A stretch of DNA of 63,879 bases, counting the filler, from Reclinomonas americana ATCC 50394 (taxonomy: Eukaryota): assembly GCA_048213135.1 (NCBI GenBank). It is 5 parts of 3 records of this genome, joined end to end, with 100 filler letters (N's around TTAATTAATTAA, not from the genome) between each part and the next. Parts side by side here need not be neighbours in the genome. Positions count along the whole stretch, not along the records: positions 49,043 to 57,702 come from PS015063.1; 4 more parts are not named here. One strand, given 5' to 3'. Below the pieces are notes generated by a model. The model was not told the origin of the DNA and searched no databases. It saw only the letters and a program-made list of their open reading frames with translations. Shown one piece after another: positions 4,080-63,879 of the stretch (position 1 is its first letter; each line of letters starts with the position of its first letter). The position numbers and the translations under genes are program-made.

Positions 4080-5904
4080 GAGCGCGACAGGAAGCAGCGC
4101 GAGAACGTGGCGAGTGAGCGCGAGGTGCAGCAAATGTACTCTGACGTTCAGAAAATGGAGGCCAAGACCAGCGCGCTGCTCGCCGATATTACCAGGTTGC
4201 GTGCCAGCGCCCGTTTCGCATTCTTTTTTCATCCCCTCATGTCTCTCTCTTCTCTCGCCAGTGTGCGAAAGCAATGCACTCCACAGTTGCTGGCCGACTC
4301 GGCGGCTCGTGTCGAGGAGCAGGGCGCCAAGTACGAGGCCTGCAAGGCCGAACTGACCAAGCTGACTGACGACATTGCCAACTGTCGTCAGCAGCTGAAC
4401 AGCAGCCAGTTGAACAAGGTGAGCTGTGGGCAGGAGCCGCCGTGATCCTTGTTTGCTGGTGTACCCTCACATTCTTCGCACAGCGCACCATCCACGACAC
4501 TCTTCTGTTGCGGAAGAAGAAGAGCGAGCAGGCCGAGTGCGAGGAGCGGCTGAAGTTGGCCACTGGCAAACTGCTGGCCACCAATGTCGACCGGCTCAAG
4601 TCGGATGTCGACGATGCGCAGCGGAAGCTGAGGGAGATGGAAAACAATGTTGCGTGTGTACGCCTGTGTTTCAGTACGCGCGACGTGGCCTCTCACTCCT
4701 TCAGTCTCTGTGTGCAGGCCGCTCAACTGGAGGGCATGCGTCTCGCCACGCAGCAGCACATTACGTCGCTTGAGCGCGACCTGATGGTCGAAAAGTACCG
4801 GTACGCCGACCGCAACTTCCGCAACACGCTCATCAAGGTGCGCACCATCGAGGTGGCGGTGCGTGACCTGGAAAAGTACCGCGCTGCGTTGGAGAAGGTA
4901 TGTCGCCTTCCATCTCTACTTTCATTTTTCTCTCATGCTCACTTATCTTTTTCCCCCCAAGGTGATGCGTGCGTACCACGCCAACAAGATGCGTGAGATC
5001 AACCAAATCATCCGCGAGTTGTGGCAAAAGACGTACAAGGGCACCGACATTGAGTACATTGAGATTGTGTCGGACGCCGAGGCCACTGGCGGCAACAAGC
5101 GCAACTCGTTCAATTACCGCGTGGTGATGCACCGCGGTGGCGCAGCACTGGACATGCGCGGTCGATGCAGTGCCGGTCAGAAAGTGCTGGCCAGTTTGAT
5201 CATTCGCCTGGCGCTGGCGCAGGCGTTTTGCATTCAGTGTGGCGTGATTGCGCTGGACGAGCCGACCACGAATTTGGATGCGGACAATGTGGCCAGTTTG
5301 GCCGATGCGCTGCAGGCGTTGCGTGTGAGGGCGAAGAGGAGGGAGAGGGGAGAGAGGAGGGAGAGAAAAGGGGAGAGGGAGAGGGGGGAGAGGGAGAGGG
5401 AGAGGGAGAGGGAGAGGGGAGGAGCAGAGGAGAGAGGAGAGGAAAATAATGAAGAGAGAAAGAGTGAAAGAGTGAAAGAGTGAAAGGGGAAGTGAAGAGA
5501 GGAAAGAGAGAGAGAGAGAAAGAAAGAAAGAAAGCCAAGGATAGCCAGAAGGAGAAAGAGACAGAGCGCTTTATTTCTTTTCTCGGAGCTCATGCATTCT
5601 TCGTGCCTGCAGTATTGTGCGCGACCGGCTTCACCAAGGTGTGTGCTGCGCGCCACGTTCTCGATGTTTCCGCGTACTTATGATACTCGACGCAGCCAAC
5701 TTCCAGCTGATTGTCATTACGCACGACGAGGGCTTTGTGCAGCGTCTCGGCCGATCAGAGTGTTGCGTTTTGGTTGACGTGAGGGATGCACGTCGATGGT
5801 CACCGTCTTACATTCACTGTGCAGTCATCGACTCGTACTATCGCGTGTCGCGTGATCCGGCCACTCAGCACTCGGTGATCGAGAGGCAGAACTTTATGAT
5901 ATAA
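647..5904 (+). CDS. RAD50: DNA repair protein RAD50 (N-terminus missing; about 18 exons here)
   Basis: Long coiled coil with zinc hook CDVC (~2728), signature [12 protein letters not shown], Walker B/D-loop [11 protein letters not shown] and H-loop [10 protein letters not shown]; stop TAA 5902-5904. Approximate exons: 647-821, 1327-1418, 1473-1647, 1759-1925, 1991-2333, 2421-2593, 2655-2787, 2861-2974, 3039-3161, 3482-3660, 3725-3980, 4080-4195, 4262-4418, 4484-4648, 4718-4897, 4962-5317, 5613-5638, 5696-5761, 5825-5904. Confidence 0.97.
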
Positions 5905-11029: not shown

Positions 11030-14000
11030 ATGGCGATAAGACACTTTCTCGTCCCGTTGTTCGTCCTCACTTTGTTTGCTGTGTTTGCCACGGGTGAGTG
11101 CACTGCTGAGCGTGTGAGAGAGTGAGAGAGACAAAGTGTGCTCACTGGTGCTTGTGCTGCAGCTGTGGCCTCGCGATGCTCCTCTGACGATCAGTGCAAT
11201 GCTCCTCATGGTGAGTTTCAGCAGACGCGGGTGGCAGGCAGAGTGATGGAGGAGAGGGAGAGAAGGAGAGAGAAGGAGAGAAGAGAGAGCAGGCTTGGGA
11301 CGAGGTCACTCCTCACCCTTCTCCTCATGTGCTTCTCCTCACACCCTTCTCCTCACACCCTTCTCCTCACACCCTTCTCCTCACACCCTTCTCCCCACAC
11401 CCTTCTCCCCACACCCTTCTCCCCACACCCTTCTCCCCACACCCTTCTCCCCACACCCTTCTCCCCACACCCTTCTCCTCACACCCTTCTCCCCACACCC
11501 TTCTCCTCACACCCTTCTCCTCACACCCTTCTCCTCACACCCTTCTCCTCACACCCTTCTCCTCACGCCCTTCTCCTCATACCCTTCTCCCCACACCCTT
11601 CTCCTCACGCCCTTCTCCTCACGCCCTTCTCCTCATACCCTTCTCCTCATACCCTTCCCCCACCCTCCTTCTCCTTACACCCCCCAGGTCGCTGTGTCGA
11701 CGGCATGTGCATGTGCACCAACCGCCTGGTCGGCGGCGAATCGTGCGAGTGCCACCCCGACATGACACACACGTGCCACTCGTACCCCTCGATCTACGCC
11801 GTGCCGACGGGCGATGGCACGCAAATGTGCGTCGACCTGGCCACCTGCATCAAGGCCAAGGGCGTGCTGATTGTGCCCGGCGAGCAACCGCCACCGCCGG
11901 TGGTGAAGGCTGCTGCGACTCCGACGTGCTCCTCCAACTCGCACTGCAATTACCCGTACGGCTCGTGTGTCGATGGGTGAGTTTCTTCACTCTTCCTCGC
12001 CCTGCTTCACTCTTATTTCTCATCGCCCTTTTCGTTTGCAGTGCATGCCGATGCCTCGGTCACCTTGTCGGTGGTGTGCACTGCCAGTGCCGCCCGACCA
12101 CGGATCCCACGCTGCGTTGCATGCGGCAGCCGGATGTGTACTCGGTGGCCGGCGTGTGCTCTGATCTGGCCGACTGTGTGGCGTGGACGGAGCGTGGTGT
12201 GTTGCCGGCGGCCATTCGTCCGCTTGACCCGTCGCGTGGAGAGGCGTGCTTGATCAACACCGACTGCGGTGCTCATGGTGCGTATGTGTGTGAGTTGCCT
12301 TCACACCCGCTTCCAACTTTCTCTAATCTCTCTTCCCCGACAGGCACGTGCAACAAGGATACTCGGTGAGTCCCCCCACATTACCTTCTCCATTTCGCCC
12401 CTCCCCCTGCTGACTCCTTTTGTGTTGCTGCGCAGCAAATGCATCTGCAACAACGCATCTGTTGGCGGCCGCCAGTGCGGGTGTGTTCCCGACGCGTCGA
12501 CCTGCCCCTCGGCACCGTCGTCGTACTTTGTGGCCGGAGAGTGTGTCTCGCTGCGCGAGTGCATCGCCACCAGGGATCCGCACCTGCATGTGGCCGACAT
12601 GGCGCCGACGCTGCTGCAAGTGCGCGTGACCGGTGTGACCACCACCGAGTTCAATCCGCTCGACGCCGTGGTGGTGTTTGAGTTGACAACGGGTGGCGGG
12701 TTCCGTGTGCCGGCCGCGTTCCCGGCCGGCGGCTACTCGCTCATCAACTACGGCGCCGGTGACTTGAGCATGGAGCCGGTGCACCGCGTGGAGTTGCCCG
12801 ACGCGCTCAGCGAGACCGAGGCCAGTTTCTCGAATGTGCTGGTGTCGGGTCGCAACCTGCTCGTCTTCTCCTACATGGACACGTTTGGTCGCCCGATTGT
12901 GCACCACACCACGGTCTGGGGCGGCACCAACACGGTCACGGTGCAGCTGGTGGTCGGCAGCGACGGCAAGGAGCTGTTTAATGAGTCCGCGCACGTGACG
13001 GTGACCATGTTTGACGAGAGCAGCATCACGGTCGGTCCGCTGCTGGTGACGACCGGCACGGTCACGGTGCACAATGTGCCGTCCACCAACATGTCGATTT
13101 ATGCCGAGTCGGCGACTGGTGGCGGCGTGTCGGGTCACTATGGTGGCGTGCCACGCAGCACCATGCAGGTGCGCATGTTGGGCTACCAGCAGCCGAGCAC
13201 CGAGGACAACAACAACTTGTCGCGCGCCGACATTGCTGGCTGGACGCCTTCGTCGCACGCGGCCGTGGCGGTTGCGGCGCACGTGGAGCTGTCGGACGAG
13301 CTGCCGCCGGACGGCATTGTTCGCCGCCACCCGCACGCCAGTCTGAGTGACATGCGTCGCGAGCGCTCCGAGGCGCACGCGGCGATTGGACCCATGCCTG
13401 CCATGCCGAGCCATCACGCCGACCACTACGACACGCACCTTGACCTGGACCTGATGGCCAACACCAACTACGACGTGCACCTGTCGACCAGCTCGAGCTT
13501 CTCGGAGCAGACGCTCACGCGCGCCTTTGTGACCAAGCCGAAGACCACCTCGGTGCAAGTGCGCTACCGCTTTGTGACGCTCGAGTACACCTCGTTCTTC
13601 GGCACCGCCTTCAACGACTACTATCGCGTCCAGCTGCGCTCGCACCGCAACGACGACGAGGTGGTGGACAGTCGCAGCCTGAACTCGCTCGGCGCCTCGG
13701 CCTTCTCGGTGGCCCGTTTGCGCGACTCGGTCTTTGTCGGCTACACGTCGTGGATGGTGCTGGAGTTGCCGGTGGCTGGTGGCGACGCCGTGCAGCTCGA
13801 CGTGACGGTGTCGAACGTGTCGGACAACCTGTACGATTCGCGGGTGGAGATCGACTATGTGCGCGAAANNNNNNNNNNNNNNNNNNNNNNNNNNNNNNNN
13901 NNNNNNNNNNNNNNNNNNNNNNNNNNNNNNNNNNNNNNNNNNNNNNNNNNNNNNNNNNNNNNNNNNNNNNNNNNNNNNNNNNNNNNNNNNNNNNNNNNNN

Positions 14001-30426: not shown

Positions 30427-32918
<2,492 letters not shown>

Positions 32919-34443: not shown

Positions 34444-37379
34444 ATGAGTTACTTGCCGAACCCGCTTTATGCTGGCGCCGGCTTTCACGTGGAGGACTCG
34501 GGTGTGTTGCACGAGGTGTTTGGCCTGATTGCCGCAGGTCAGTGTGCACGCTCCCCTCGGTACGAGGGAGGAGAAGCGCTCACTCGCGTGGGCACACAGA
34601 GGGCGCGTCGGAGGAGACGCTGGAATACGTACGACGATTCTCGTTGCTGAAAATCGCCACCGAGTGGCTGTGGCCGGCCATCGACACGCTGTACAGACCA
34701 ACGTCGGCCGTCACCACCACCACTAGTAGCAGTACGACGACAACGACCACGAGTCTGTCCCAGCGCAATCGTGGATCATTGTCGTCGCGTGTTCCTCCGT
34801 CGTCATCCCGCAGTCTGTCGACGCGGCTGGTCGGCTTGTCGCCGCCGACACTGGAGGTGAAGGACTCGCAGCGAGCTGGCGTCGTGGAAAGTGTGGCGGC
34901 CATCTTGCGTGCCTTTTGCGCAGTTGCGTGAGTGTGGGTGACACGGTCGGAAAATGAGTGTGTGGGGAAGAATAATTGCTAACAGCGAACGACGACGACG
35001 TGTGTCGACTTGTCCCTGTTTGTGCAGATTCTGGAAAACCCTTCAGCTGACGACCTTGCCGGCCAAGTGTTGCAGATGTTTACGCCACCCAACACCACCA
35101 TTCCGCGTCTGTGGCCGCTGTTGCACTCGTTGCGTCTTTGTTTCATCCCCCGTTTTTTCTGGGTTTCTGACGAACACGTGACAGACGGCATGCGAGTGTC
35201 GATCGACACGCCGCCTTTCGCCTGCTCGGTCTGCTGTGCATCAAGCACTCGACACTGGCGGCCGAATGCACGCTCGAGGGCCTGCTCGTGCGCTGCGGGC
35301 TGGATGTGCACTTGGCGCGCGCCGAGACTCGCACCGCGGCTTTCACGTTTGCACTGCTGCGGGAACTGATTGACCTCGGCTGTGACCGACTTGTGCACCT
35401 GTTCTTGCCGGCACTGCGGGAGGCCGCAGTGGAGCTCAACACGTGCACCGCCGCCGACGCCGGTCGCGCACAGTCGAACAATTCGCTGGCCAATTTGGAG
35501 CCGGAGTGGAGTTTGCACGTGCGCGAGGCCGCCAAGCTGCTGCTGTTGCATATTGTGGAGCAACGTGATGAGACGAGTGAGGTGGGTAATGGGGGAAAGG
35601 GTAATAGGGAAAGGGATATGAGGGTAGTGAGGGAAAGGGATATGAGGGAAAGGGTAGTGAGGGGACGGATAGTGAGGGAAAGGGAATGAGGGAAAGGGTA
35701 GTGAGGGAAAGGGAATGAGGGAAAGGGTAGTGAGGGAAAGGGTAGTGAGGGAGAAGGGAATGAGGGACAGGAGATCAGGGGAGGGAAATCGAGAAAGAAT
35801 ACGATTGCAGGGGATGGGAAGATGCAGAAATTGGGCTAATAAGTGGGACGATGGAAGAAGAAAAGATTGCAATGAGTGAAGAGCTGGGAAGGATGAATAT
35901 GGGAAGGAAGAGAAGAGGTGCTGAATGGAGACGGAAAGAAGACAGTGAGATAGGGATGGGCTTGAGAAAGGAAACGACGAGAGGAAGATGATGGAACGGG
36001 AATCGAGGAGAGGGGAAGCAAGAAAGATGATTGCAGATCAGAAGAGAAAACCGAGGGCGACAGGAGGGATGGAAGAGGGAAGATTGAGATGCGCTAAGAC
36101 AGGGGATCAGTGAAGAACGAGAAGAGGATGGAGGCGGAAGCAACGGGGCAATGAGTGAAAGAAGAAAATTTGGAGAAGGACTTGTGAGGGAGGGAAGGTT
36201 GAGATGAATGGACAGGAAATCATTGAAGAACGAGAAGAACATGGAGGGGTAAGCAAGGGGACGTGAGAAGAATGAGGCACATGAATGAGAGACATTGCCG
36301 CACATGGATAAGATGAATTCAACGTCTTCTGCTCTTCTGCTCTTCTTACAACCACCGTCATCTCATTCTCAATCCTCTTCCTCTTTCCCCGTTCTACAGT
36401 CCACCCGCAAGGATTTCCTGCTGGAGTTGGCGATGCAGTTCCCGATGGTCGCTGTCGCAGACTCCATGCATGAATTGCGCCTGTCTCTCGGGACTGGTGA
36501 GCGCAGATTGAAGGCGACAGTGCTGTTGCTGGCGACTCACCGTGCGCTCTGCTGCAGGCTCAAGTTCAAATACCACGGAATGGGACGAGTTCATGTCACT
36601 GGTGACGATGGTGAGTCCTCTTTACTGCCCTCACCCTTCCCTCCCTCCTGTCCTCTNNNNNNNNNNNNNNNNNNNNTCGCCCTTCTCTCCCTCCCTGTCC
36701 TTACCCTTCTCTCCTCTCCCTGTCCTCGCCCTTCCTCCTCCCTCCCTGTCCTCGCCCTTCCCTCCCTCCCTGTCTTCGCCCTTCCCTCCCTCCCTGTCCT
36801 CACCCTTCCCACAGGCCCTCCGAAGCACCCCACCTCACCACTACGAAATGTGCTCCATCGAAGACCACTTACCGGGCTTTTACCGCGCACTCGACGCCAT
36901 TTGCCAGGGATACTCGCTCCTTCTCCACGTGAGTGCGAAAAGGCACGAAAAGAGAATTGAGTAGCGACACTGACGTCGTCACCATTCCCGAATAGCGCAT
37001 GGACCTCGTCAGTGCCGACTGCCCGCTGGCCATCTCGGCCGACGCCTACCTCATGCCGCTGCTCACCGAACTGTTCCTGTATCGCGTTTGTGGCAGCACA
37101 AGCGAGTTGCGTCAACGTGTACTGTCGATCTTTGCTTCCTCTCCCATCGCTCACCATCTTCGCAGTGCCCACACGCCCGACGCACTGCAATTTTTCGGCT
37201 TGCACACCTTTATCGCCGTCACCTCTCTCCTCATGCGCGTGTACGGCAACGGAGGCGGGCGGCGTGACATGTCACGACACTTGGAATCACTGTTGCAAAA
37301 GGTCAAGGACAACAAGTTTGGTCGGCGAGGTTCCGACCGGCGAAGCCGGCGACGCGGCTGTCGGTGCGAGATCGTGTAA
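34444..37379 (+). CDS. Hypothetical Leu-rich helical protein ending in a CaaX-like motif (CEIV)
   Basis: Exon chain joinable in frame through GT-AG introns (donors 34538, 34923, 35129, 35582, ~36497, 36611, ~36929); polybasic C-terminus RRSRRRGCRCEIV. Family not recognised. Confidence 0.6.
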
Positions 37380-50006: not shown

Positions 50007-51069
50007 GAGAGAGAGAGAGAGGAAGGCGATGCTTCTGCAGCGACTATAATGCGACCCAGGCGGCGACGTAGGCAATGTCCCTTCTATGATTGAGATTGTA
50101 TGTGATGGCTTTGCAACACCTTGCACGACTGAGCGACGCATTATCCGTGGGGAACGAGTGAGAAAGGAAGAGACTGAGAGATCGCGTTGCATGTTTGTGT
50201 GTCGGCTAGTCCGAATCAAGTGCTTACGCGATGTGTTAGCCGTGAGAACGAGGGGCTAGTTGACTACGTGGCACTTCACCTGCTTCTCTCTCAACACTCT
50301 TGATTGTTTGCAGGTTGGATGCGACCATGCGCGAGCTGTGCAACCTGGTGAAGGAGGTGAACAAGTCGGCGCGTGCGCGCGATGCACGCGTGGCGTTTTA
50401 CTCGGTGTATCCCGATTTGAGGCGTGGGGCGTTCACTTCGCGACAACTTGGCGAGGTTTGTCGCGTTTCCCAGTTTCTCCCTCTCCCACTCGTTGGTTTT
50501 GCTCTCGCTTGCATCGCGTCTCTTACCCGTTCTCTGTCTGTCAAGCACGTTGCGCTGTGCAGTCCCCTGTCTTCTTGTACAAAGAAACCCCGTGCTTTTC
50601 TTACATGTGCGCTTCGCGCCTCGTTTCACGCTCACAAAGCATTCCCATTCCCTTTCCCTCCCACTATTATCCCTTCTCTCGCTCTACTCGATGCAACGCT
50701 CATCATGCTTGGTCCGTTTCGCTGATCTAGTCTCCTCTTCCATGAACCCATCGCGATCTCTGTCACTGTGAATCTCTTTCCCGCCTTCTCGTTGCCTCTC
50801 GCTCTCTCGCTTCGTTCTTTTCGTTCCCGTTACCCATCGCGATCTCTCTCGATGCATCGTCTTCCTTCCATTGCCTCTCACTCTCACTTTCTTTGTTTTC
50901 TCGCACTCATCACATTTCTCTTTCCTTTCCTCCCTCGTCCCTCACTGCCTTCCCCTTCTCCCCCCGCCAGGTCATCTCCGGCCGCCGCACCTCGGCCGAC
51001 GAGAGAACACTGGCCGAGTGCCGCTTCGAGATTGGCGACTACCTGGACGTGGCGGTGTACGAGCGCTAA
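49281..51069 (+). CDS. SAP18: Sin3-associated polypeptide 18 (first exon missing)
   Basis: IDREKTTPFLLRVF, EVQMYTW|LDATMRELCNLVKEV and RFEIGDYLDVAV. Exons 49281-49431, 49817-49876, 50314-50455, 50971-51069. Confidence 0.95.
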
Positions 51070-51219: not shown

Positions 51220-52650
51220 TCACAATAATGCGCACGCTCGCGATGCGTTCTTGCCGTCGTCGAGTGGTGCGCCATCATCGTCGGGGGCTTCCCACGCCTC
51301 GATCTCGACCTTGAAGTAGGCGAACACGGGTCGGTGGTCCGACGAGCGCATCTCCCGAATCGAGTCGTACATCATTAATTGTATGCCTTGCGGTCGGAAG
51401 AGCACGCGATCGGTCCAGGAGGGGATGCGGCGCTGTTCGTAAGAAAAGAGTGAGATAGTGAGGAGAGGTTTGCACGTCTCCTCGCACTTCTCTCTCCCAC
51501 GAATCTCTTACTCCTCTTGTTCTTCGTCGCATTTATGTCTTCTTCTCCTGCCTCAGAGTGTGCATCGCTATCTTTGTCTACCTCGTATTCTTCCTTTCTC
51601 TTTTCCCTTCCCTTCCCTTCCCTTTCATCTCTTTTCTCTCTCTCCGCCTTGTTCTTTTTTTATCCTTATGTTCTTCTCCTTCTTTTCCCTCAGAGTGTGT
51701 GTATCGCACATTCAATCTGCCTCGCCTCCTTCCCCGCTACTTTTTCTTGTCTTCTTTCTCCCTCATTCTTCTCGCTGCCTCTCAGCTCAGCTTTCCTCTT
51801 TTCTTCTCCTGCTTCTCCTCTCTCCGGCTCTCTAATTTTGTCTCGTCTCCTTCCCATTGTTTTCTTCTCTCTCTCTCTCTCTCGCACACACACGCACACA
51901 ATCTTATCTTCTCTTGACCTTGATAGATTTTCCTCTCTCTCTCTCATGCCATGTCTTGGTCTTCTTCTTCTTTGTTCTCTCAGAGTGTGTGTATCGCTCA
52001 CTCTGTCTGTCATGTCTCCTACTTCCTTCTCATCTCCTGTTTCTCTTCTCCTCTCCTATCTTTTCCTCTCCCACCAGACCCACCTTACTGCTGCTGTCAT
52101 ACACATCGGTCCCTGCATCGAATTTGTACGTGGGCGGAAACGTGATTTGCCCCTCGTCGAATCCGCGAAACACGCGGCGCATTGCGCGCTGTTTCAGCAG
52201 CTGGTCGTTGGCCAGCAGCACGTCGTGCATGTTGCCGGCCAGGCACCGGTCCACGGCCTTGCGCTTGCCCTCGATGCGGTAATTCAAGTCGCCGCACCAA
52301 AACACGCGATCAAATCGCTGCGTCACCGGTAATCTGGCGATGCGCTCCTCGGCGGCCGTCGCCACCGGATCCGGATCGAGGGGGTTGGCGGCAATGTCCA
52401 GCGCCAGGCCCTGGTTGATTTGGTGAAAGTCCTCGTTGCGCTCCTCGACCTTGTGGTCGAAGGCTGCATGGGGGGAAAAGGGAGGTGAGAAAGGAGAAGG
52501 GCGGTGGGAAGACGAGCGAAGATCTAGGTGCACGAGAGAGAAGGAAGACGGAAGAGGGATGAGGAAAGTGTGGGGTAACCAATCACGGACGCATATGGAG
52601 ATGTGTGAATTGAATGCGGACAGGGAGGCAAACGAATATCTCTTAGTCTA

Positions 52651-52683
<33 letters not shown>

Positions 52684-55187
52684 NNNNNNNNNNNNNNNNN
52701 NNNGCGTGCCCACGGCGTAAATGTCGTGCTCGCCAGGCACAATAAACGGGGCCAGCACATCGGGTGGTTGCTGGGGAGTGGAGATGATGAGACAAAGAAT
52801 AGGATGAATGAGAGCAACTTCCACGAACAAACCTTGCCATGCATATTCCACGTCCCCACAAACACAAACACATGGTTCGGAAACACTGGGCCCTCGGCAA
52901 ACGGCTGCACGGCGGCGGCGGCCTCCGGTGTGTCGGCAAACGCGGTAATGTGCAGGGGCAGAGGTCGCGGTGAGTTGGCCACGGCTTCAGCCTCGGCGTC
53001 GAGAAAGGTGCCGGAGACATCCACCGAGGAGCGCTTTTGAGCCAGGATAGAGATGGTGGGGCGTGAACGGGCACTCGTGCTGTGAAGCATGTGGGAGTGA
53101 GGAGAGAAGAGTGAAGAGAGATCAAAGGACAAGGCACTCAAACGCACCTGGTCCCCACAGTTTCCGCAACACCTGGAACATCATCGCCGTCGTCGTCGTC
53201 GCCGTCTCCATCAACAGATGCCACAGCTGCTGCGGCCGCGGATGGGAGGAGGATATCGCTGCCGCTGTCGGTGCTTCGCGAGCCTTCGCGTTGCAGCTGC
53301 GGCGATGGCGGGTCATCATCAGTTTGAGAAGTGATGATTGAGGGAGAGAGAGACGCACAGGCTTTGGTGGAGACATTGCCGAGTCAGTGTCGGAAGAGGC
53401 ACTGTGAGATCCTGAGGGCGCGGGCTGTTGGGAAATTCGGGGTAAGGGCGAGACGACACAGCAGGGATGTTACAGGCAAGACGAAACCGGTGGTGGCAGC
53501 GACGAGTGCAATGGAGGGACAGCCTGCAGGAGGGACACGGAGTCAGCAAAGGACGAGGCAGAGTTGCGCAGCATCGCATGAGACTCACTGCTGGTGATTC
53601 TTCTGTGCGCACTGTGGTCTGCGCAGAGGGAGGAAGCGGTGAGCGGTGACCACACTCAATAGCGAGGGATGACGGCGGAACCTGTGGTGGTGAGCTAGGC
53701 AGCGACTGGCGCGGTTCCGCAGCAGGCTGCATGGTGAATGAGTGAGGGAGGGGAAATACCAAGTGCAGACAACGCATGTGCTCACCGAGTGTGTTTCGAC
53801 GGCGGGGGGAGAGTGGCCCTGAGAGGGAGCACGAAAGTTGAGACAACTTGGCAAGTGACAGGATGCTGCACGTGGAGTGCGCACCGAGGGTGATCCAGCG
53901 GCGGGTGCAGAGTGAACCTGCAAGCGAAAGAGTGAGATATCGCTGCAGGTCAGTGCAACTAAATTTTTTTGCTCACCGAGTGTGTTTCGCCGGCGGGTGG
54001 CGGGTGACCCTGACAGGGAGAATGAAAGATGAGAAACTGCGACGATCGAGAAACAAACCGCAAAAATGGAGAACGCACCGAGGGTGATCCGGCGGCAGCA
54101 GGTGCATGTGTCTGCTGCGGAATGTATGTGTGAGACAGACGCGATGGGGGAACGACATCGCAATCAATGCGCACCGGATGCGATTCGGCAGGTGGCGAGT
54201 GACCCTGAGAGATGGCGAGATGACGTTGAGTGTACAATACAGGGAAGAAGCGAACGCAATACGGTGCACACCGAGTGAGATTCAACGGCGGGTGGCGAGT
54301 GAATCTGCAAAGAGACAAGCGCTGAGATCACGCGGCCGTCAGGGGCCAAACTGCAAGCGACCTCACCGGCAGTGACTCGGCGGCAGGAGGCGCATGAACC
54401 TGAAGGAGAGGACGCTGAGTACACTGAACAGGCAAGAGTTGAATCACAATTGCAGCTCACCGAGTGAGATTCAATGGGTGGCGAGTGACCCTGCAGTGAG
54501 ACATGAATATGAGACTAGGATACCGTCTGGGGCACACAGCAAGTTTCGTCACCGAGTGAGACTCGACAGTGGGTGGCGAATGGCTCTGCGAAAGATGACG
54601 TTGAGCACGCGATGCAAGTGAGCATCGAGTTGCAATCAATTCTCACCGAGTGCGATTCGGCGGCGGGTGGCGTATGTGTCTGCGTGGAGAGAGGGAGAGA
54701 AAGCGATAGAGTGAGACGGATGCTACGGGAGAGCCAAACAGCATGTCGAGCGCACCGGATGCGATTCGGCGGATGGTGAGTGACTCTGCAACAGAACGGC
54801 ACATGAGACTACCTTGCCATATGTGGGAAGAGAGAGAGCAAGCTTCCTCACCGAGTGTGATTTGACGGCAGGTGGCGAGAGACTCTGTGGAGCGCAAGGC
54901 GAGTCAAAACAACAGTTTTCACAAGAACAAGCGCAACGGCGGACAACTCACCGACGGAGCCGCCGCCGCCAACGCGCCAGATGAATCGCTCTGCATCGAA
55001 GCGGGATGAGTAAACACAACGCACTTGCTACCTTCCCGCTGAACGGCGGCATTCGTCTTCACCTGCGGCTGCTGCGCACAGAGAATACAAGTGAGTGCGC
55101 TTGCAGGATCGAACACGAAACGAACGCACGACAACGTACCAGCGGTGCAGTTGCGATAGGCGGCAACGCATTCACAGCGGGCTGCAT
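51220..55187 (-). CDS. INPP5E: Inositol polyphosphate 5-phosphatase, INPP5E-like, with Pro-rich microexon-encoded N-terminus and C-terminal CaaX (CALL)
   Basis: VFVGTWNMHG, VTQRFDRVFWCGDLNYRI, FPPTYKFD, YDSSSK|RRIPSWTDRVLF, SSDHRPV and terminal RACALL*. Middle exons hidden by the gap at 52684-52703; start codon uncertain; subfamily assignment from remembered motifs. Confidence 0.85.
53786..54884 (-). repeat. Array of 12 related phase-0 microexons (30 or 33 nt) separated by 59-76-nt introns
   Basis: Each unit is flanked by CAG| and |GTG on the minus strand: 54852-54884, 54756-54785, 54647-54679, 54553-54585, 54461-54490, 54367-54399, 54272-54304, 54175-54204, 54079-54111, 53977-54009, 53885-53917, 53786-53818. 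Confidence 0.88.
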
Positions 55188-55446: not shown

Positions 55447-56315
55447 NNNNNNNNNNNNNNNNNNNNNNNNNNNNNNNNNNNNNNNNNNNNNNNNNNNNNN
55501 NNNNNNNNNNNNNNNNNNNNNNNNNNNNNNNNNNNNNNNNNNNNNNNNNNNNNNNNNNNNNNNNNNNNNNNNNNNNNNNNNNNNNNNNNNNNNNNNNNNN
55601 NNNNNNNNNNNNNNNNNNNNNNNNNNNNNNNNNNNNNNNNNNNNNNNNNNNNNNNNNNNNNNNNNNNNNNNNNNNNNNNNNNNNNNNNNNNNNNNNNNNN
55701 NNNNNNNNNNNNNNNNNNNNNNNNNNNNNNNNNNNNNNNNNNNNNNNNNNNNNNNNNNNNNNNNNNNNNNNNNNNNNNNNNNNNNNNNNNNNNNNNNNNN
55801 NNNNNNNNNNNNNNNNNNNNNNNNNNNNNNNNNNNNNNNNNNNNNNNNNNNNNNNNNNNNNNNNNNNNNNNNNNNNNNNNNNNNNNNNNNNNNNNNNNNN
55901 NNNNNNNNNNNNNNNNNNNNNNNNNNNNNNNNNNNNNNNNNNNNNNNNNNNNNNNNNNNNNNNNNNNNNNNNNNNNNNNNNNNNNNNNNNNNNNNNNNNN
56001 NNNNNNNNNNNNNNNNNNNNNNNNNNNNNNNNNNNNNNNNNNNNNNNNNNNNNNNNNNNNNNNNNNNNNNNNNNNNNNNNNNNNNNNNNNNNNNNNNTGC
56101 GAGGGTGTGTGCATGGGAGAATCGTCGCTTGTTCCGTGTTCTTGAATTTCAATTTTTGTAAGGCGACTGGAGCACTGGTCATTCTCCCCCCCCTCTCTCT
56201 CACACACTCACACACTCACTCTCTCCCTTCTCTTCTCTTTTCTGCATCACTGTTACTGTTGCTGTTGTGAGTTGCGCGTTGTTGTCCGACTTTCTTGTCT
56301 GCCTCCTCCCCTCAG

Positions 56316-57094
56316 ATCCGCGACGGTGCCGAGCTCGAAACGCCCATGATGTTGGAGGGCGAGCAAATAGAAAACATCTGCCCTCAAGTGTGCTTCCTCA
56401 ACGGTCAGACCACGGTGCCGGGCGACTTTTACATTACCAACTATCGCACGATTTTCCTGCCGCAAGTTTCATTGCCCGTTCTCTGCCTCTCTCTTCCTCC
56501 CCCACGTTGTGCTCACACGCGTCACACAGAGCAAGCACGAGTACACGGGCATCTCTGCGCCGCATCTCAGTGTGTGGAAGGCGGAGAAGATTGGTGGCAA
56601 GAGCACGCGCGGCGCCAACGCCTACCTCGTCGAGCTGCACTGCAAGGATTTTCGTATCCTGCGCTTTGTCTTTGACCCGCTGCAGAAGCGGAGAAAAACG
56701 GTGGGTTGTGAAGTGGGGGAAGGGTGCAGGAGAGGGATGCACTGAAGAAAGAGGAGAGAGAGAGAGAGAGTGAAAGACTCAGAGTGACGGAGAGAGTTAA
56801 AGTCACAGGGGGACAGAGAAGGACAGAGAGAAAGTGAGAGAGATGGAGGGAGAAAGAGAGGGTGCGATAGAGCGAGCGAGAGAGAGAATGCAAGATGGGA
56901 TGGAAAGTGAGAGAGCGAGATGTGGCGGTCTTTTCACTCAAGTTTGTTTGGTGCTGCAGATCTTCCAACACCTTAAGCGCAAGGTGTTTCCCGATTCGAT
57001 CCGACAAACGTTTGCGTTCTCGTACGTGAGGCACTTTGAGGCGCCGGTGAATGGCTGGAAGTTGTACAACATCGAGGCGGAGTTTGCGCGACAG
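56316..57094 (+). CDS. Myotubularin-family phosphoinositide 3-phosphatase, PH-GRAM region (partial)
   Basis: LEGEQI, GDFYITNYR, EKIGGKSTRGANAY, CKDFRILRF and NGWKLYNIEAEFARQ match the MTM1/MTMR2 N-terminus. Exons 56316-56465, 56530-56700, 56960-57094; catalytic domain not in this scaffold. Confidence 0.88.
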
Positions 57095-57530
57095 GTGCGG
57101 GCAGGGAGGAGAAGTGGGGTGAGGACGTTCACAGCCAGTCTGTTGTCATTGGAAACCTGCTGTTTGCGACTCCGTCTGCTGTGTTTCTAGACCGCTGGCG
57201 TTATTCTCACCTCTCCTCATTCTGGCTTTTCACTCACCGCCCTCTCAGTCGCAGTTCATACCCTTTCTCTTTCCCTGCTTCTTTCTCTGCGATCCCCGTA
57301 GCTTTCCTTGTTTGCGCGCAGCATAATCTCGCTCTCGATGCTTCTTCGCTCTCCCCGAATTCCTCGTTTGTGTCTTTCACGAGGGTCGATGTGTCTCAAA
57401 CCAGTGAGTGCACACGCCTCTCTTTCTCTCTCTGTGCACCCTCTCTGCATCCTGTGATTCCTCTCCATGCCGCCTTGTCTTCTCTCCATCTCGGGAATCC
57501 ATGCATTGTACTCTCCCCCTCACTCTCTCT

Positions 57531-57624
<94 letters not shown>

Positions 57625-57659
57625 CTACTACTACTCTCTACTCTCTCTTCCTACTCTTC

Positions 57660-57691
<32 letters not shown>

Positions 57692-57702
57692 GTCTACGTC
57701 TA

Positions 57703-57802
57703 NNNNNNNNNNNNNNNNNNNNNNNNNNNNNNNNNNNNNNNNNNNNTTAATTAATTAANNNNNNNNNNNNNNNNNNNNNNNNNNNNNNNNNNNNNNNNNN
57801 NN
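57703..57802. other. Artificial scaffold linker
   Basis: TTAATTAATTAA at 57747-57758 within N runs. Confidence 0.97.
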
Positions 57803-58177
57803 AAATCGTCGACGGGACGAGTGTGTGGCGGGCATACGCCTGTCTCGTGGCAGTCTCCTTCGTCGGGTGTTGGCGTCGCCGATCCATCTGGCACCAGCTT
57901 CGTGTTCTCGGCATCATGGAGTGGTGCAAAAGCGCGACGCTTTGCCCTGCGAGTCGATAAGAGGCACGTGGCCGTTCTTCACGGCTCTTCATATGGACCT
58001 ACCTTCGGAATCAGCAATCCGGATATACTGTTGTATGACGGCTGCAACCGCATCGACGGCGGCTTCTGCCAACCCTATGCGTACCAGAGCACCGACGGCG
58101 GAGCATATGGCAGCACGACACTGATGGGATCGCAAGGCTTCCAAGTGGCAGACTACGAAGTCTTCCTCGTCGAGTGA
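57803..58177 (+). CDS. TLDc-domain protein, C-terminal fragment
   Basis: KSSTGRVCGGHTPVSW, DPSGTSFVFS, YGPTFG and FQVADYEVF are typical TLDc motifs. Confidence 0.85.
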   Translation, partial: KSSTGRVCGGHTPVSWQSPSSGVGVADPSGTSFVFSASWSGAKARRFALRVDKRHVAVLHGSSYGPTFGISNPDILLYDGCNRIDGGFCQPYAYQSTDGGAYGSTTLMGSQGFQVADYEVFLVE

Positions 58178-58773: not shown

Positions 58774-61239
58774 ATGTCGCTCGTCAACGCCCTCCTCCAA
58801 GGCATCTTCATCGACGAGAACTTCCTCATTCTCATGGCCATCAGCGCCTCCGCGCCTCTCATCTGGAACCTCCTCGCGCGCGCACAGTACAGCTTCGACG
58901 CCCTCTCGCGTCTCTGCTGCGGACACCGCACTCTCGCCAATGTCCTCCTCGCCGCCTGGATCTTTGGATACTCGGGATACAGGGACTTGGTGTTGCGCAT
59001 GAGCAGAGAGAGAGAGAGAGTAAGTGCGTCACACCAAAGTGTGTGACATGTCGTCGTGTTGCAGGTTCTTCCGTGATGTGGAACTGTGGCCGCGCTCTGC
59101 GTTGTTGGATAATGATGTGTCGCGTGTGGCGGCTATTGTGTTGTTTGCGCTCGGCAGTCTGTTTGTGTATACCTCCATTGGACAGCTGGGATTTGTTGCG
59201 TGGCGCTGATGCAGTAGTGTGCATGTGCTCCTTTCTCTCTCTCTCATGCACTCCGCGTGTCTCACTGTTGTTGCATATCATCCTCTGCGCTTCTCTCTTT
59301 CTTCTTCCACTCTCCTCCTCACCTTCTTCATCCTACTGATGTCTGCCTGTCTGTCTCTCTTCTCTCTTTCCTCAACTCTTTTCTCTCTCTCTTTTCATCC
59401 TTCTACTTCTCCTCCTCCTCCTCCTCGCCTTCATCCTCTCTCTCTCTCTCACATGCATTCACACTTTTCTTGTGTGTCTCCTTCATGTCTTCCTCTGGGC
59501 TTCACTCTCATTTCTTCTTCTTCCTCCTCCTCTTCATCCTCTCGCTCTCTCCTTGTGTCTTACTGTAGTCTGCCTGCCAATCTCTTCTCTCATGCTCCTT
59601 CCCTTCTACTCTATCCTTCTCTGTCCTCGCTTCTGTTTTCCCTCTCTCTCTCTCACTCACTCTCTCTCGCTCACTCTCTCCTTGTGTCTCACTTCTCTCA
59701 TTCCTTGCTCCTTCTCAGTCTCTCCCCTTGCTCTCTCTCTCTCTTTCACTCACGCACTCTCTCCTTGTGTTTCACTGTTGTCTGCTTGTCTGTCTCTCTT
59801 CTCTCTTTCCCTGCCCCTTCCCTTCTATCCTACCCTTCTCCGTCCTCGCTTCTGCCTTCCCTTTCTCTCTCACTCACTCTCTCCTTGTGCCTTACTGTTA
59901 TCTGCTTGTCTGTCTCACGTCTCTCCTTTCTCAACTCTACACTCTCTCTTTCTCATTTCTTCCTCATCCTCCTCCTCCTCGCCTGCATCCTCTCTCTCCC
60001 TCTCTCACGCACACATTCACTCTCTCCTTGTGTCTCATTGTTGTCTGCCTGCGTGTCTCTCTTCTCTCATTCCTTGCTCCTTCTCCTCCTCTCCTTCTTC
60101 TTCGTCTCCTTCTGCCTCTTCCTCCTTCTCTTCTGTATCATCTCCTCCTCCTCTCCTGTCTCTGTCTTGAGCTCACTGGTGTGTTGGTTGCAGTACGGCA
60201 CGTGGTTGGGCGACTACTTTGGCTTCCTGCAGCCGTCACGCGTGACATCATTCCCGTTCAACGTGCTCGATGTGAGTTACGAGGGAGAAAGAGCTGGGGA
60301 GGGTTACATGACGCCTGCTGCTGTGCATGACGCGGTATTGAGATACTCTGTGGTTCACGTATCATGCATGTCACTGTGAGAGTGAGCGAGCGTGCTTCTC
60401 GAGAGCAGAGCATAATGTTCACACCTCACTTTTGATACTTTGAGAACCTGCGCAATCCCATGTATTTCGTCGGATCGACGCGTGCGTACAGGACGCGTTA
60501 TATCTGTCGCATTCTCGATCCATCGTTCTACTTGTTGTGCACTTTGACAGCTTATGGTTGCGTGAGGGTCAGAGACCGCGACCACAGCATTTCACGAAGA
60601 CCTGCTTTCTCGTCCTCATGTTATCACATGAGAACAGAGCAGAGATAACATCTCAGCCTGCACTGCCGTCAGCCTGCACTGCCGTGGCTACGTTGAGAAC
60701 TTTCACAATTCCTTGTTTGCTCGATGTGCTTGTATTTGTGTGTCAAGCCTAACCAGACAGATGCTTGCTTTCTGGTCTATCGTATGTTTCCGTTTATCAT
60801 CTTTTGTCACTGCGTGGGAGCAGCGCAGAGCGTTACACATCTCGCGCTGCATGCAAAATTTATGATCCTTTCAATCCCAAGTTCGTCAGTTTCTCTACTT
60901 AGATCGCATGAAGCACTCACCCTTCCCCTCCCCTCCCCTCCCCTCCCCTCCCCTCCCCTCCCCTCCCCTTCCCCCTCCCCCTTCCCCTCCCCCCTCCCTC
61001 CCCCCTCCCCCTCCCCTTCCTCTCTCCCGCAGAACCCCATGTACGTCGGCAGCTCCATGTGCTTCCTCGGCCACGCCCTCTGGGAGCGCAGCCTGAACGG
61101 CGTCATGATGTCCGTGTGGATCTTCCTCGTCTACCGCATCGCGCTGCTCTTCGAGGAGCCGTACACGGCGGAGATCTACGCGCGCGTGGAGCGCCTGAAG
61201 CTCGGTGGCCAGCGCAAGAGTGTCAACTCGACCGAGTAG
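58774..61239 (+). CDS. PEMT: Phospholipid N-methyltransferase (PEMT/OPI3 family)
   Basis: PLIWNLLARAQY, LGF|YGTWLGDYFGFL, RVTSFPFNVLD|NPMYVGSS and ALLFEEPYTAEIY. Exons 58774-58991, 59065-59194, 60194-60271, 61033-61239. Confidence 0.96.
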
Positions 61240-62773: not shown

Positions 62774-63827
62774 CTATGAGACTGGCGCGGACGGTGGCGA
62801 AGAAACCGAGGTGCGCTGTGCAATGGGTGGCGACGTCGGACCGCCCAGTTGTGCGCTGGTGGTCACCGCCGCCGGCGAGTTCGTGCCTTCGCCATTCGCC
62901 TGCTGTTGTCCTTCTTCCTGCTGCCGTTGCCGCTCCTTCTCGGCTCGTTCGCGCTCCATCACAGCCGAGCTCTTGTACTCGAATTCGCACGATCCGATAG
63001 GATGCGCCACAGCGGTGCGCGCCATGTACGGAATGTGCACTGCGCCAAACTTGCGGAACAGGCGGTATCGCCACAACAGCTTGCTCAGAATGATCTGCGT
63101 GCCCATCTCTTTGTCAGCGCACAACAACACGCAAAAGCCCCACCCCCGGAGAGTAGTGGCGTACCTTGCTGGCGGCAATGGCAAACTTGCGACCGGGGCA
63201 TGCGTGTGTTCCGTAGCCAAAGATCGATACCGTGTACTTGGCGGGATCGTCCTTGCGGTAGTAGCGCTCCGACAGGAACGTGTCGTCCCACCGAGCCGGC
63301 TCAAACTGCGACATGGCCGGTGCGTCTTCGTAGGCCGCCATGTACGGATTCACCGTGTTCATCTCGTACAGGCGCGTGAGCAGGAAGGTGTCGGTCGGCA
63401 GGTGCCACTCTACTCGCTTGCCGTCTCTGTCCTGATCTTCCATCACCCACGGCCGTACTGTCAGACGCGGCACTGGCGAGTGTTGCGCGATGCGCAGTCC
63501 TTCGCAAATCACCCGCTCCAGGTGCGGCAACTCCACCAACAGCAGATCGTACTGCGACGTAAACTGTGGGCCGTGCCGACGAATCGCATCCTCAATCTCC
63601 GTCATGACGCGCTGGGCGTGCTGTCGGTCCTGAATGGCCAAATGCACCAGCGCCCACGCGATTCCGCCCAGCAGATTCGAGTGCGCCACGAAATACGTCA
63701 CCAACGCCGTCATGGCCACCTTGCGGTGGCGGGCCTCCATCGGCTGAATGTCTGCGTGGTACTCGTACAGACGCGTGAGGTTGTCATTCGGCAGCACGTC
63801 CATCTCCATGCGTTTCCGACCGATTTC
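62774..63827 (-). CDS. Cytochrome P450, C-terminal half
   Basis: ExxR (EGLR), FEPARW and heme motif FGYGTHACPG; intron 63164-63095; acceptor at 63828, so the gene continues beyond the window. Confidence 0.95.
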
Positions 63828-63879
63828 CTGCACACACCGCAGCGCAGTCAGCGCGGGTTACGAAGGCAGCTGCCGCGGG

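Follow-up and report, generated by a model that had tools for sequence, protein, structure and literature searches.

Twelve tandem phase-0 microexons probably build the N-terminal arm of an INPP5E-like phosphatase in Reclinomonas americana

Results

We analyzed a 63,879-nt stretch of DNA from Reclinomonas americana ATCC 50394 (assembly GCA_048213135.1; hereafter the window, along which all positions are counted). On its minus strand, twelve short conserved units alternate with diverged spacers upstream of the exons of an inositol polyphosphate 5-phosphatase. In the explanation that we favor and consider probable, these units are tandemly duplicated phase-0 microexons that build the N-terminal arm of this INPP5E-like, CaaX-ended enzyme. 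Here we document the anatomy of the array, coding-type substitutions in one of its reading frames (frame 0), intron signals in its spacers and an in-frame path to the catalytic exons.

Each microexon would encode one unit of the type x-H-S-P-P-A-x-E-S-H-S, and the twelve units together with five further small phase-0 exons would give rise to a Ser/Pro/Ala/His-rich N-terminal arm. Each 59-76-nt spacer would be removed as an ordinary short intron that is recognized across the intron, so that exons of only 30-33 nt would present no obstacle and all units would be included by default. The array itself would have arisen by unequal recombination or slippage of exon+intron units of ~95-105 bp, after which the introns would have drifted to saturation while selection kept the exons at ~69% identity.

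Anatomy of the array

The twelve units extend from 54884 to 53786 on the minus strand, nine of them 33 nt and three 30 nt long, such that their lengths differ by whole codons only.

53786..54884, minus strand: array of 12 proposed phase-0 microexons and 11 introns (59-76 nt), defined by its boundaries, the CT[CG]A motif, an exon identity of 0.69 and third-position variation
54884-54852, 54785-54756, 54679-54647, 54585-54553, 54490-54461, 54399-54367, minus strand: array exons 1-6
54304-54272, 54204-54175, 54111-54079, 54009-53977, 53917-53885, 53818-53786, minus strand: array exons 7-12

CAG stands directly before and GTG directly after each of the units (12/12), with the fourth donor base being A in seven, C in four and T in one. 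In transcript order, the spacers measure 66, 76, 61, 62, 61, 62, 67, 63, 69, 59 and 66 nt. Among the exons, mean pairwise identity is 0.69 (range 0.51-0.87, 66 pairs), and all 12 are multiples of 3 with phase 0-0 in the frame favored by the substitution pattern described below. An initial annotation of this DNA had listed the same twelve 30/33-nt minus-strand units, with edges of CAG and GTG(A/C/T). Its coordinates matched ours exactly and its peptides (SLSPPAVKSHS to GHSPPAVETHS) agreed letter for letter in twelve of twelve cases, and the 39-nt unit that it placed at 54990-54952 is likewise present, between CAG and GTGAGT. It had also described the units as stop-free. This is correct for the frame it claimed, frame 0, but no stop interrupts frame 1 of the joined units either, leaving two open frames, and frame 2 contains 2 stops.

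To judge the array against the rest of the window, we used a chain finder that accepts introns of 50-95 nt starting with GT, containing CT[CG]A and ending in YAG, joined by open exons of 18-69 nt in multiples of 3. This yielded 15 consecutive introns at the array, compared with no more than 5 elsewhere in the 63.9-kb window and no more than 4 in 30 shuffles. The pattern is far beyond chance. Tandem Repeats Finder (TRF) did not report the array, because its spacers have diverged and the cores alone are conserved.

Two features of the array bear on alternative products. Unit 9 has a tandem CAGCAG acceptor (54112-54117, minus strand), and splicing to its upstream AG would lengthen the exon by a Gln codon, to 36 nt. 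In addition, 4 of the 11 array introns have a length that is a multiple of three (66, 63, 69 and 66 nt). The last of these, intron 11 (53819-53884, minus strand; 66 nt), is in frame and stop-free within an open reading frame (ORF) at 53585-54163, and its retention would insert 22 residues with the frame kept.

Intron signals in the spacers

All 11 spacers start with GTG and end with CAG. All carry a CT[CG]A branch-like motif upstream of the acceptor, which lies at -19 to -26 except in one spacer, where it is at -36. The same motif is found in a 62-nt phosphatase intron (52832-52771, between ..FVGTWNMHGK and QPPDVLAPF..), the position of which is anchored by homology, as well as in other introns of the gene model. 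A strict form of the signature, GTG[AC]G...CT[CG]A[CT]...YAG (~45-90 nt, both strands), occurred 53 times in the window as against 6.0 +/- 2.6 times (maximum 12) in 50 shuffles. Outside the array there were 48 such hits, their lengths clustered at 58-70 nt. The array spacers therefore have the size and signals of ordinary short introns of this genome and, as first proposed, they are sized like short introns elsewhere in the window (59-76 nt vs. the local cluster of 58-70 nt). The strict motif is usable as an intron signature for annotation of this genome.

Intron sizes are not uniformly short, given that the last phosphatase intron (51433-52083, minus strand) is 651 nt long and an intron of RAD50 in the window is ~370 nt. 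The former is GA-rich (CT-rich on the plus strand), and the introns upstream of it in the phosphatase are of ~63 nt.

Substitution patterns favor frame 0

Open reading cannot fix the frame of the array, since two frames are open here. We examined how the units vary in a codon alignment, using a third-position test on 33 columns from 12 related copies with 100,000 column permutations. In frame 0, column diversity at codon positions 1, 2 and 3 was 0.24, 0.18 and 0.38, respectively, an excess at third positions with a permutation p=0.012. Third positions were variable in 10/11 codons, the sole invariant one being the G that adjoins the donor, while second positions were an invariant C in 6/11, the base that the fourfold families for Ser, Pro, Ala and Thr have there. 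Consistent with twofold families, the third position of the His codons (CAY, column 6) varied between C and T only and that of the Glu codons (GAR, column 24) between A and G only.

The pooled nonsynonymous-to-synonymous ratio (pN/pS) of the units was 0.43 in frame 0, 1.49 in frame 1 and 2.36 in frame 2. Frame 1 would place the greatest variability at second codon positions and the strongest conservation at third positions, the opposite of what coding sequence shows. The earlier claim that the units behave as coding microexons in frame 0 is thus supported, both by third-position variation and by the pN/pS of 0.43. For annotation, the frame of arrays of this type needs substitution patterns or RNA, open reading alone being insufficient. 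The Glu codon of the array is GAA in 7/9 cases, vs. GAG in 29/34 in the other coding exons of the window.

An in-frame path to the phosphatase exons

In frame 0, a stop-free chain of 1005 nt runs from ATG 54996 to ..FVGTWNMHGK at the start of the catalytic core, comprising 19 exons and 18 introns (59-76 nt). The introns placed between the array and the catalytic exons measure 59-68 nt and have GT..CAG ends. The exons of the gene model outside the array are as follows.

54952..54996, minus strand: probable first coding exon, with ATG at 54996-54994, the first in frame-0 ORF 55233-54919, and donor GTGAGT
54990-54952, minus strand: alternative to the first exon, a 39-nt internal exon, if CAG 54993-54991 serves as acceptor
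53682..53726, minus strand: 45-nt phase-0 exon (PAAEPRQSLPSSPPQ), model only, between CAG and GTTCCG; adjoining introns of 59 and 63 nt
53589..53618, minus strand: 30-nt phase-0 exon (TTVRTEESPA), model only, between CAG and GTGAGT
53488..53523, minus strand: 36-nt phase-0 exon (AVPPLHSSLPPP), model only, between CAG and GTTTCG
53359..53424, minus strand: 66-nt phase-0 exon, model only
53148..53296, minus strand: 149-nt exon, acidic and Ser/Asp-rich, with the phase-2 end that the next exon demands
52833..53079, minus strand: 247-nt exon ending at the start of the catalytic core (..FVGTWNMHGK), its frame anchored by homology (tblastn, P0001 residues 50-69)
52705..52770, minus strand: catalytic exon fragment (QPPDVLAPFIVPGEHDIYAVGT) that enters the N run 52684-52703; the preceding 62-nt intron 52832-52771 is anchored by homology on both sides
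52084..52463, minus strand: catalytic exon, Exo_endo_phos2 positions 137-244 (Pfam E 1.1e-29)
51220..51432, minus strand: last exon, with the end of the catalytic domain, C-terminal ..ACALL and stop 51222-51220 (Pfam E 1.4e-10), after the 651-nt intron 52083-51433

The catalytic end of the model was placed by two routes. PF22669 (Exo_endo_phos2) was detected in two downstream minus-strand exons, with E 1.1e-29 for profile positions 137-244 and E 1.4e-10 for positions 242-287, and tblastn with homologs placed four catalytic pieces, with the N-terminal core motifs aligning to P0001. At the 66-nt exon, the choice between the acceptors 53425/53424 and 53402/53401 sets whether frame 0 or frame 1 is read upstream. 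An alternative start at 55187, combined with a 9-nt exon at 55071-55063, is equally in frame. A model with ATG 55187, donor 55139 and a 40-nt exon was rejected, as it places the array in frame 2 with 7 stops. The assignment of the array to an INPP5E-like phosphatase in the initial annotation is supported in that the exon model allows an in-frame join to Exo_endo_phos2 catalytic exons.

Identity of the phosphatase and its homologs

A search with the catalytic exon returned 84 homologs, the best at 53% identity and none of them the window's own protein. The best named matches were a Rhodelphis protein (53%), oomycete 5-phosphatases (~50%) and animal type IV/INPP5E (45%, E 2.8e-18). Animal proteins named type IV/INPP5E matched with E 2.8e-18 to 3.7e-14 at 98-99% query cover, compared with E 7.7e-11 and 60% for INPP5K-like proteins. 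By the rank order of matches only, INPP5E is the nearest of the animal 5-phosphatase paralogs to this enzyme. The ORF ends in ..ACALL (CaaX-like) before the stop, and a C-x-x-x box is present at the C-terminal end of 46/84 homologs; the CaaX box is a predicted prenylation site. Judged by these similarities, “INPP5E-like” is a fair name for the enzyme class.

Vertebrate INPP5E has the ciliary signals LLxPIR and FDRxLYL (PMC9444247). Neither motif was seen by eye in the modelled N-terminal arm or in the translation of the last exon, which counts against conserved ciliary targeting and not against the enzyme class.

Close relatives were sought in several ways. The species-specific exon 53078-52833 had no match at E<=0.01 among 330 candidate proteins of 145-2000 aa. 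A metagenome scan, from which the best 80 of 186 relatives were retained, gave a segment identity of 56% at most and no close relative in which units could be counted. A similarity-chained microexon finder detected no chain of at least 5 in the best 80 of 186 loci, a weak negative because this finder recovers only 5 of the known introns of the window.

Composition and possible function of the N-terminal arm

The modelled arm comprises 323 residues, including 62 Ser, 54 Pro, 50 Ala and 24 His, although these figures depend on the exon model. Within the 129 residues encoded by the array there are 9 Ser-Pro sites, 1 Thr-Pro site and 20 His. With such a composition, the arm is presumably intrinsically disordered. 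A Pro-rich N-terminus of INPP5E, to which the initial annotation had pointed, is indeed stated in PMC9444247, where it is described as mediating the binding of partners, e.g., CEP164. If the exon model is correct, the R. americana arm is a Pro-rich N-terminal region of this type. By analogy with INPP5E, it would probably act as a flexible, phosphorylated tether or docking region on a prenyl-anchored lipid phosphatase.

None of the 84 homologs has two or more HSPP-like motifs. The array is thus considered to be lineage-specific, because no homolog carries repeats of the HSPP type. Arm length ranged from 9 to 846 residues in the 50/84 homologs in which the core-start motif was located. The N-terminal arm of INPP5E-type phosphatases is therefore highly variable and appears to be rebuildable from lineage-specific material, with the catalytic domain and CaaX end persisting.

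Origin of the array

Equal phase, equal position and near-equal length suggest that cassettes of ~95-105 bp, each consisting of an exon and an intron, were duplicated. The duplications would be old enough for neutral sequence to reach saturation, in keeping with exons maintained by selection at an identity of 0.69. Units 9-10 resemble units 11-12, exons 10 and 12 being 85% identical and introns 9 and 11 among the most alike, and this suggests that some of the duplications occurred in two-unit steps. Should transcripts confirm the array, it would be a very clean case of repeat-protein growth by exon+intron cassette duplication, with a period of ~96 bp. In a compact-intron genome, arrays of this sort would be invisible to ORF scans and easily missed or mis-framed by gene callers.

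Discussion

Evidence against the proposed explanation

A number of points weigh against the array being a set of microexons of the phosphatase gene. Genomic sequence is the sole source from which splicing, expression and a link to the catalytic exons are deduced, and a model built by hand supplies the start codon and the four small exons that follow the array. A run of 20 N (52684-52703), one of 22 such runs in the window (4793 N in total), lies inside the catalytic domain, such that ~95 residues (P0001 82-178) have no counterpart in the window and Exo_endo_phos2 profile positions ~30-136 fall in the run. Intactness of the phosphatase gene is not demonstrable, because the run hides these catalytic residues.

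Further points concern the frame and the origin of the array. The third-position test has only 33 columns and 12 related copies at its disposal. Frame 1 is open across the array and can be extended to a complete stop-free gene model. In frame 0, GC content at third codon positions (GC3) is 0.55. It is 0.78 across the 631 codons of the window that homology supports, and the array introns have a GC content of 0.52, near the frame-0 value. Scored by synonymous usage, frame 0 has -23.8 bits, as against +9.7 in frame 1 and +5.8 in frame 2. We take the low codon-usage fit of frame 0 to mean that codon selection is weak in a region that is young and of low complexity, but it still counts on the negative side. 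Finally, the interiors of the array introns share a mean identity of 0.50 (shuffle null 0.465 +/- 0.009), which is no closer than their identity of 0.49 to unrelated introns of the same gene. Because they are no more alike than unrelated introns, common descent of the array introns is not directly visible. What these introns have in common is length, position and signals. Tandem exon-intron duplication, as first put forward, is still the simplest origin on the basis of shared position, phase and length.

Alternative explanations

The units might be cassette exons, varying subsets of which are skipped in frame to yield isoforms that differ in arm length and Ser-Pro number, in the manner of titin PEVK or schistosome micro-exon genes. 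Since the 12 units and 5 neighboring small exons are all phase 0 and multiples of 3, any subset could be removed without a frameshift, and the tandem acceptor at unit 9 provides at least one small alternative. However, splice signals are uniformly strong and alike in all units, with none being weak, recognition across the intron is expected for introns of 59-76 nt, and selection over all units (pN/pS 0.43) fits constitutive as well as alternative use. In short-intron genomes, introns rather than exons are generally held to be recognized, and the usual alternative event is intron retention, not exon skipping. For these reasons, i.e., uniformly good unit signals and a type of genome that favors intron retention, we regard combinatorial skipping as unlikely. 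The bolder notion that the 12 (up to 17) symmetric microexons are a ruler set by splicing, with regulated skipping tuning arm length, Ser-Pro number and His content, is very doubtful. If true, a signalling enzyme of a probably unicellular short-intron eukaryote, and thus of an organism that is no animal, would have the length of its arm tuned in the manner of titin PEVK.

It is similarly improbable that the array is non-coding, i.e., a tandem repeat of ~96 bp in a 5' untranslated region, promoter or large 5' intron, with incidental splice-like edges and a protein that starts downstream. Such a reading would agree with the atypical codon usage of frame 0, with two or more HSPP-like motifs being found in 0/84 homologs, and with the richness of the window in other short tandem and low-complexity repeats. 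It does not account for the period-3 variation, which is concentrated at frame-0 sites of fourfold and twofold degeneracy, nor for conserved cores that stop exactly at CAG and GTG in 12/12 units, unit lengths that change by whole codons only, and a branch-like motif at an intron-typical distance in every spacer. Moreover, a satellite would not constrain 33 nt while 63 nt saturate.

We consider it highly improbable that the units are spliced but read in frame 1, which would produce a basic Arg/His/Pro-rich repeat (..RVTRHPP..). The path that this demands, equally hard to credit, starts at ATG 55187, uses donor 55129 and a 40-nt exon, and rejoins the catalytic frame at acceptor 53402/53401. The resulting model is stop-free over 1074 nt, ends in ..FVGTWNMHGK, and in its synonymous usage (+9.7 bits) and GC3 (0.70) is nearer to the known coding exons of the window. 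Yet it makes second codon positions the most variable and third positions the most conserved (pN/pS 1.49), and needs introns of 41 nt (donor GTAGCA) and 86 nt, both of which lie outside the local cluster of 58-70 nt. Mutually exclusive use of the units, with one or few chosen per transcript as in other duplicated exon clusters, is extremely unlikely: equal-length, equal-phase tandem duplicates are the usual raw material of such exons, but no exclusion mechanism is visible, the introns are of ordinary spliceable size for the gene (62 nt where anchored by homology), and the units encode a low-complexity repeat rather than versions of a folded segment.

Comparison with known systems

Taken as a set of duplicated phase-0 microexons, the array is of a kind that is already known, namely tandem duplication of symmetric exons that encode a likely disordered repeat. 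In the fibrillar collagen genes, a small exon+intron unit was likewise duplicated in tandem, with 54-bp exons that start and end at codon boundaries and encode a Pro-rich repeat; collagen exons of 54/108 bp are accompanied by long introns, encode the Gly-X-Y triple helix and are restricted to animals. The PEVK exons of titin are mostly ~75-84 nt. Tandemly repeated exons of schistosomes are said to have been described by Davis et al. in 1988, under a title that begins “Tandemly Repeated Exons Encode...”.

In the human genome, internal tandem duplication has given rise to symmetric exons that encode disordered regions (Schad, Kalmar, Tompa 2013, PMC3632108). These resemble the array in being adjacent, similar and of equal phase (0-0), and in adding a low-complexity, presumably disordered region to a folded domain, but the human exons are larger and their introns long, whereas the array has exons of 30/33 nt and introns of 59-76 nt. 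Titin also has many small repeated exons that encode a Pro-rich unstructured segment, with exon number shifting by duplication and loss, and the length of its PEVK segment is set by exon skipping (PMC6469411; PMC3575840). It differs in having ~100 PEVK exons, long introns and Rbm20-regulated skipping in animals, compared with 12 units and tiny introns in the array.

The schistosome micro-exon genes (MEGs), with which the initial annotation had drawn a parallel, share with the array runs of very short exons that are mostly multiples of three (PMC10526429). The likeness is loose, however, as MEGs have exons of 6-81 bp (most 15 bp) and introns of 100 to ~5000 bp, and encode secreted proteins with a signal peptide (PMC10526429). 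The array introns (59-76 nt) fall short of the long introns of MEGs, its exons are mutual copies, and its product would be the arm of an intracellular lipid phosphatase; no hydrophobic signal-like stretch was seen by eye in either candidate N-terminus. INPP5E itself (72-kDa, type IV) has the same order of parts as our model, i.e., a Pro-rich N-terminal region, a 5-phosphatase domain and a C-terminal CaaX box (PMC9444247). The R. americana protein differs in that its CaaX box has a terminal Leu (CALL), as opposed to CSVS, and in that its arm would be encoded by a lineage-specific exon array.

Surroundings of the phosphatase gene

On the plus strand, the phosphatase gene is flanked on both sides. 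A gene at 56271-58177 (plus strand) diverges from it across the gap 55447-56097 and encodes a TLDc domain (E 3.6e-07); its GRAM match is weak and falls short of the cutoff (E 0.023). A SAP18-like exon at 50264-50722 (plus strand; E 9.1e-10) is convergent on the 3' end of the phosphatase. Elsewhere in the window we identified the C-terminal part of RAD50, including the Walker B region (4724-5898, plus strand; 58-68% identity to RAD50 proteins), the remainder of the protein not being detected in the window by tblastn. In a search with a RAD50 fragment, matches of 61-76% identity were scattered among red algae, green algae and animals. A phospholipid methyltransferase (PEMT) exon lies at 60697-61236 (plus strand; E 9e-14) and a cytochrome P450 exon at 63117-63857 (minus strand; E 1.1e-11). 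An Rfam scan of the whole window gave 0 matches.

CT-rich repeats at 59397-60137, which recur every 97-133 nt, were considered as a second array and rejected, as they are of low complexity and without conserved open units; they probably belong to a long intron that precedes the PEMT exon. Long tandem arrays are present at 11250-11753 (14 nt, at least 24 registers), 31700-32385 (20 and 15 nt) and 35593-35800 (15 nt), and (CT)n and (GT)n microsatellites are abundant across the window.

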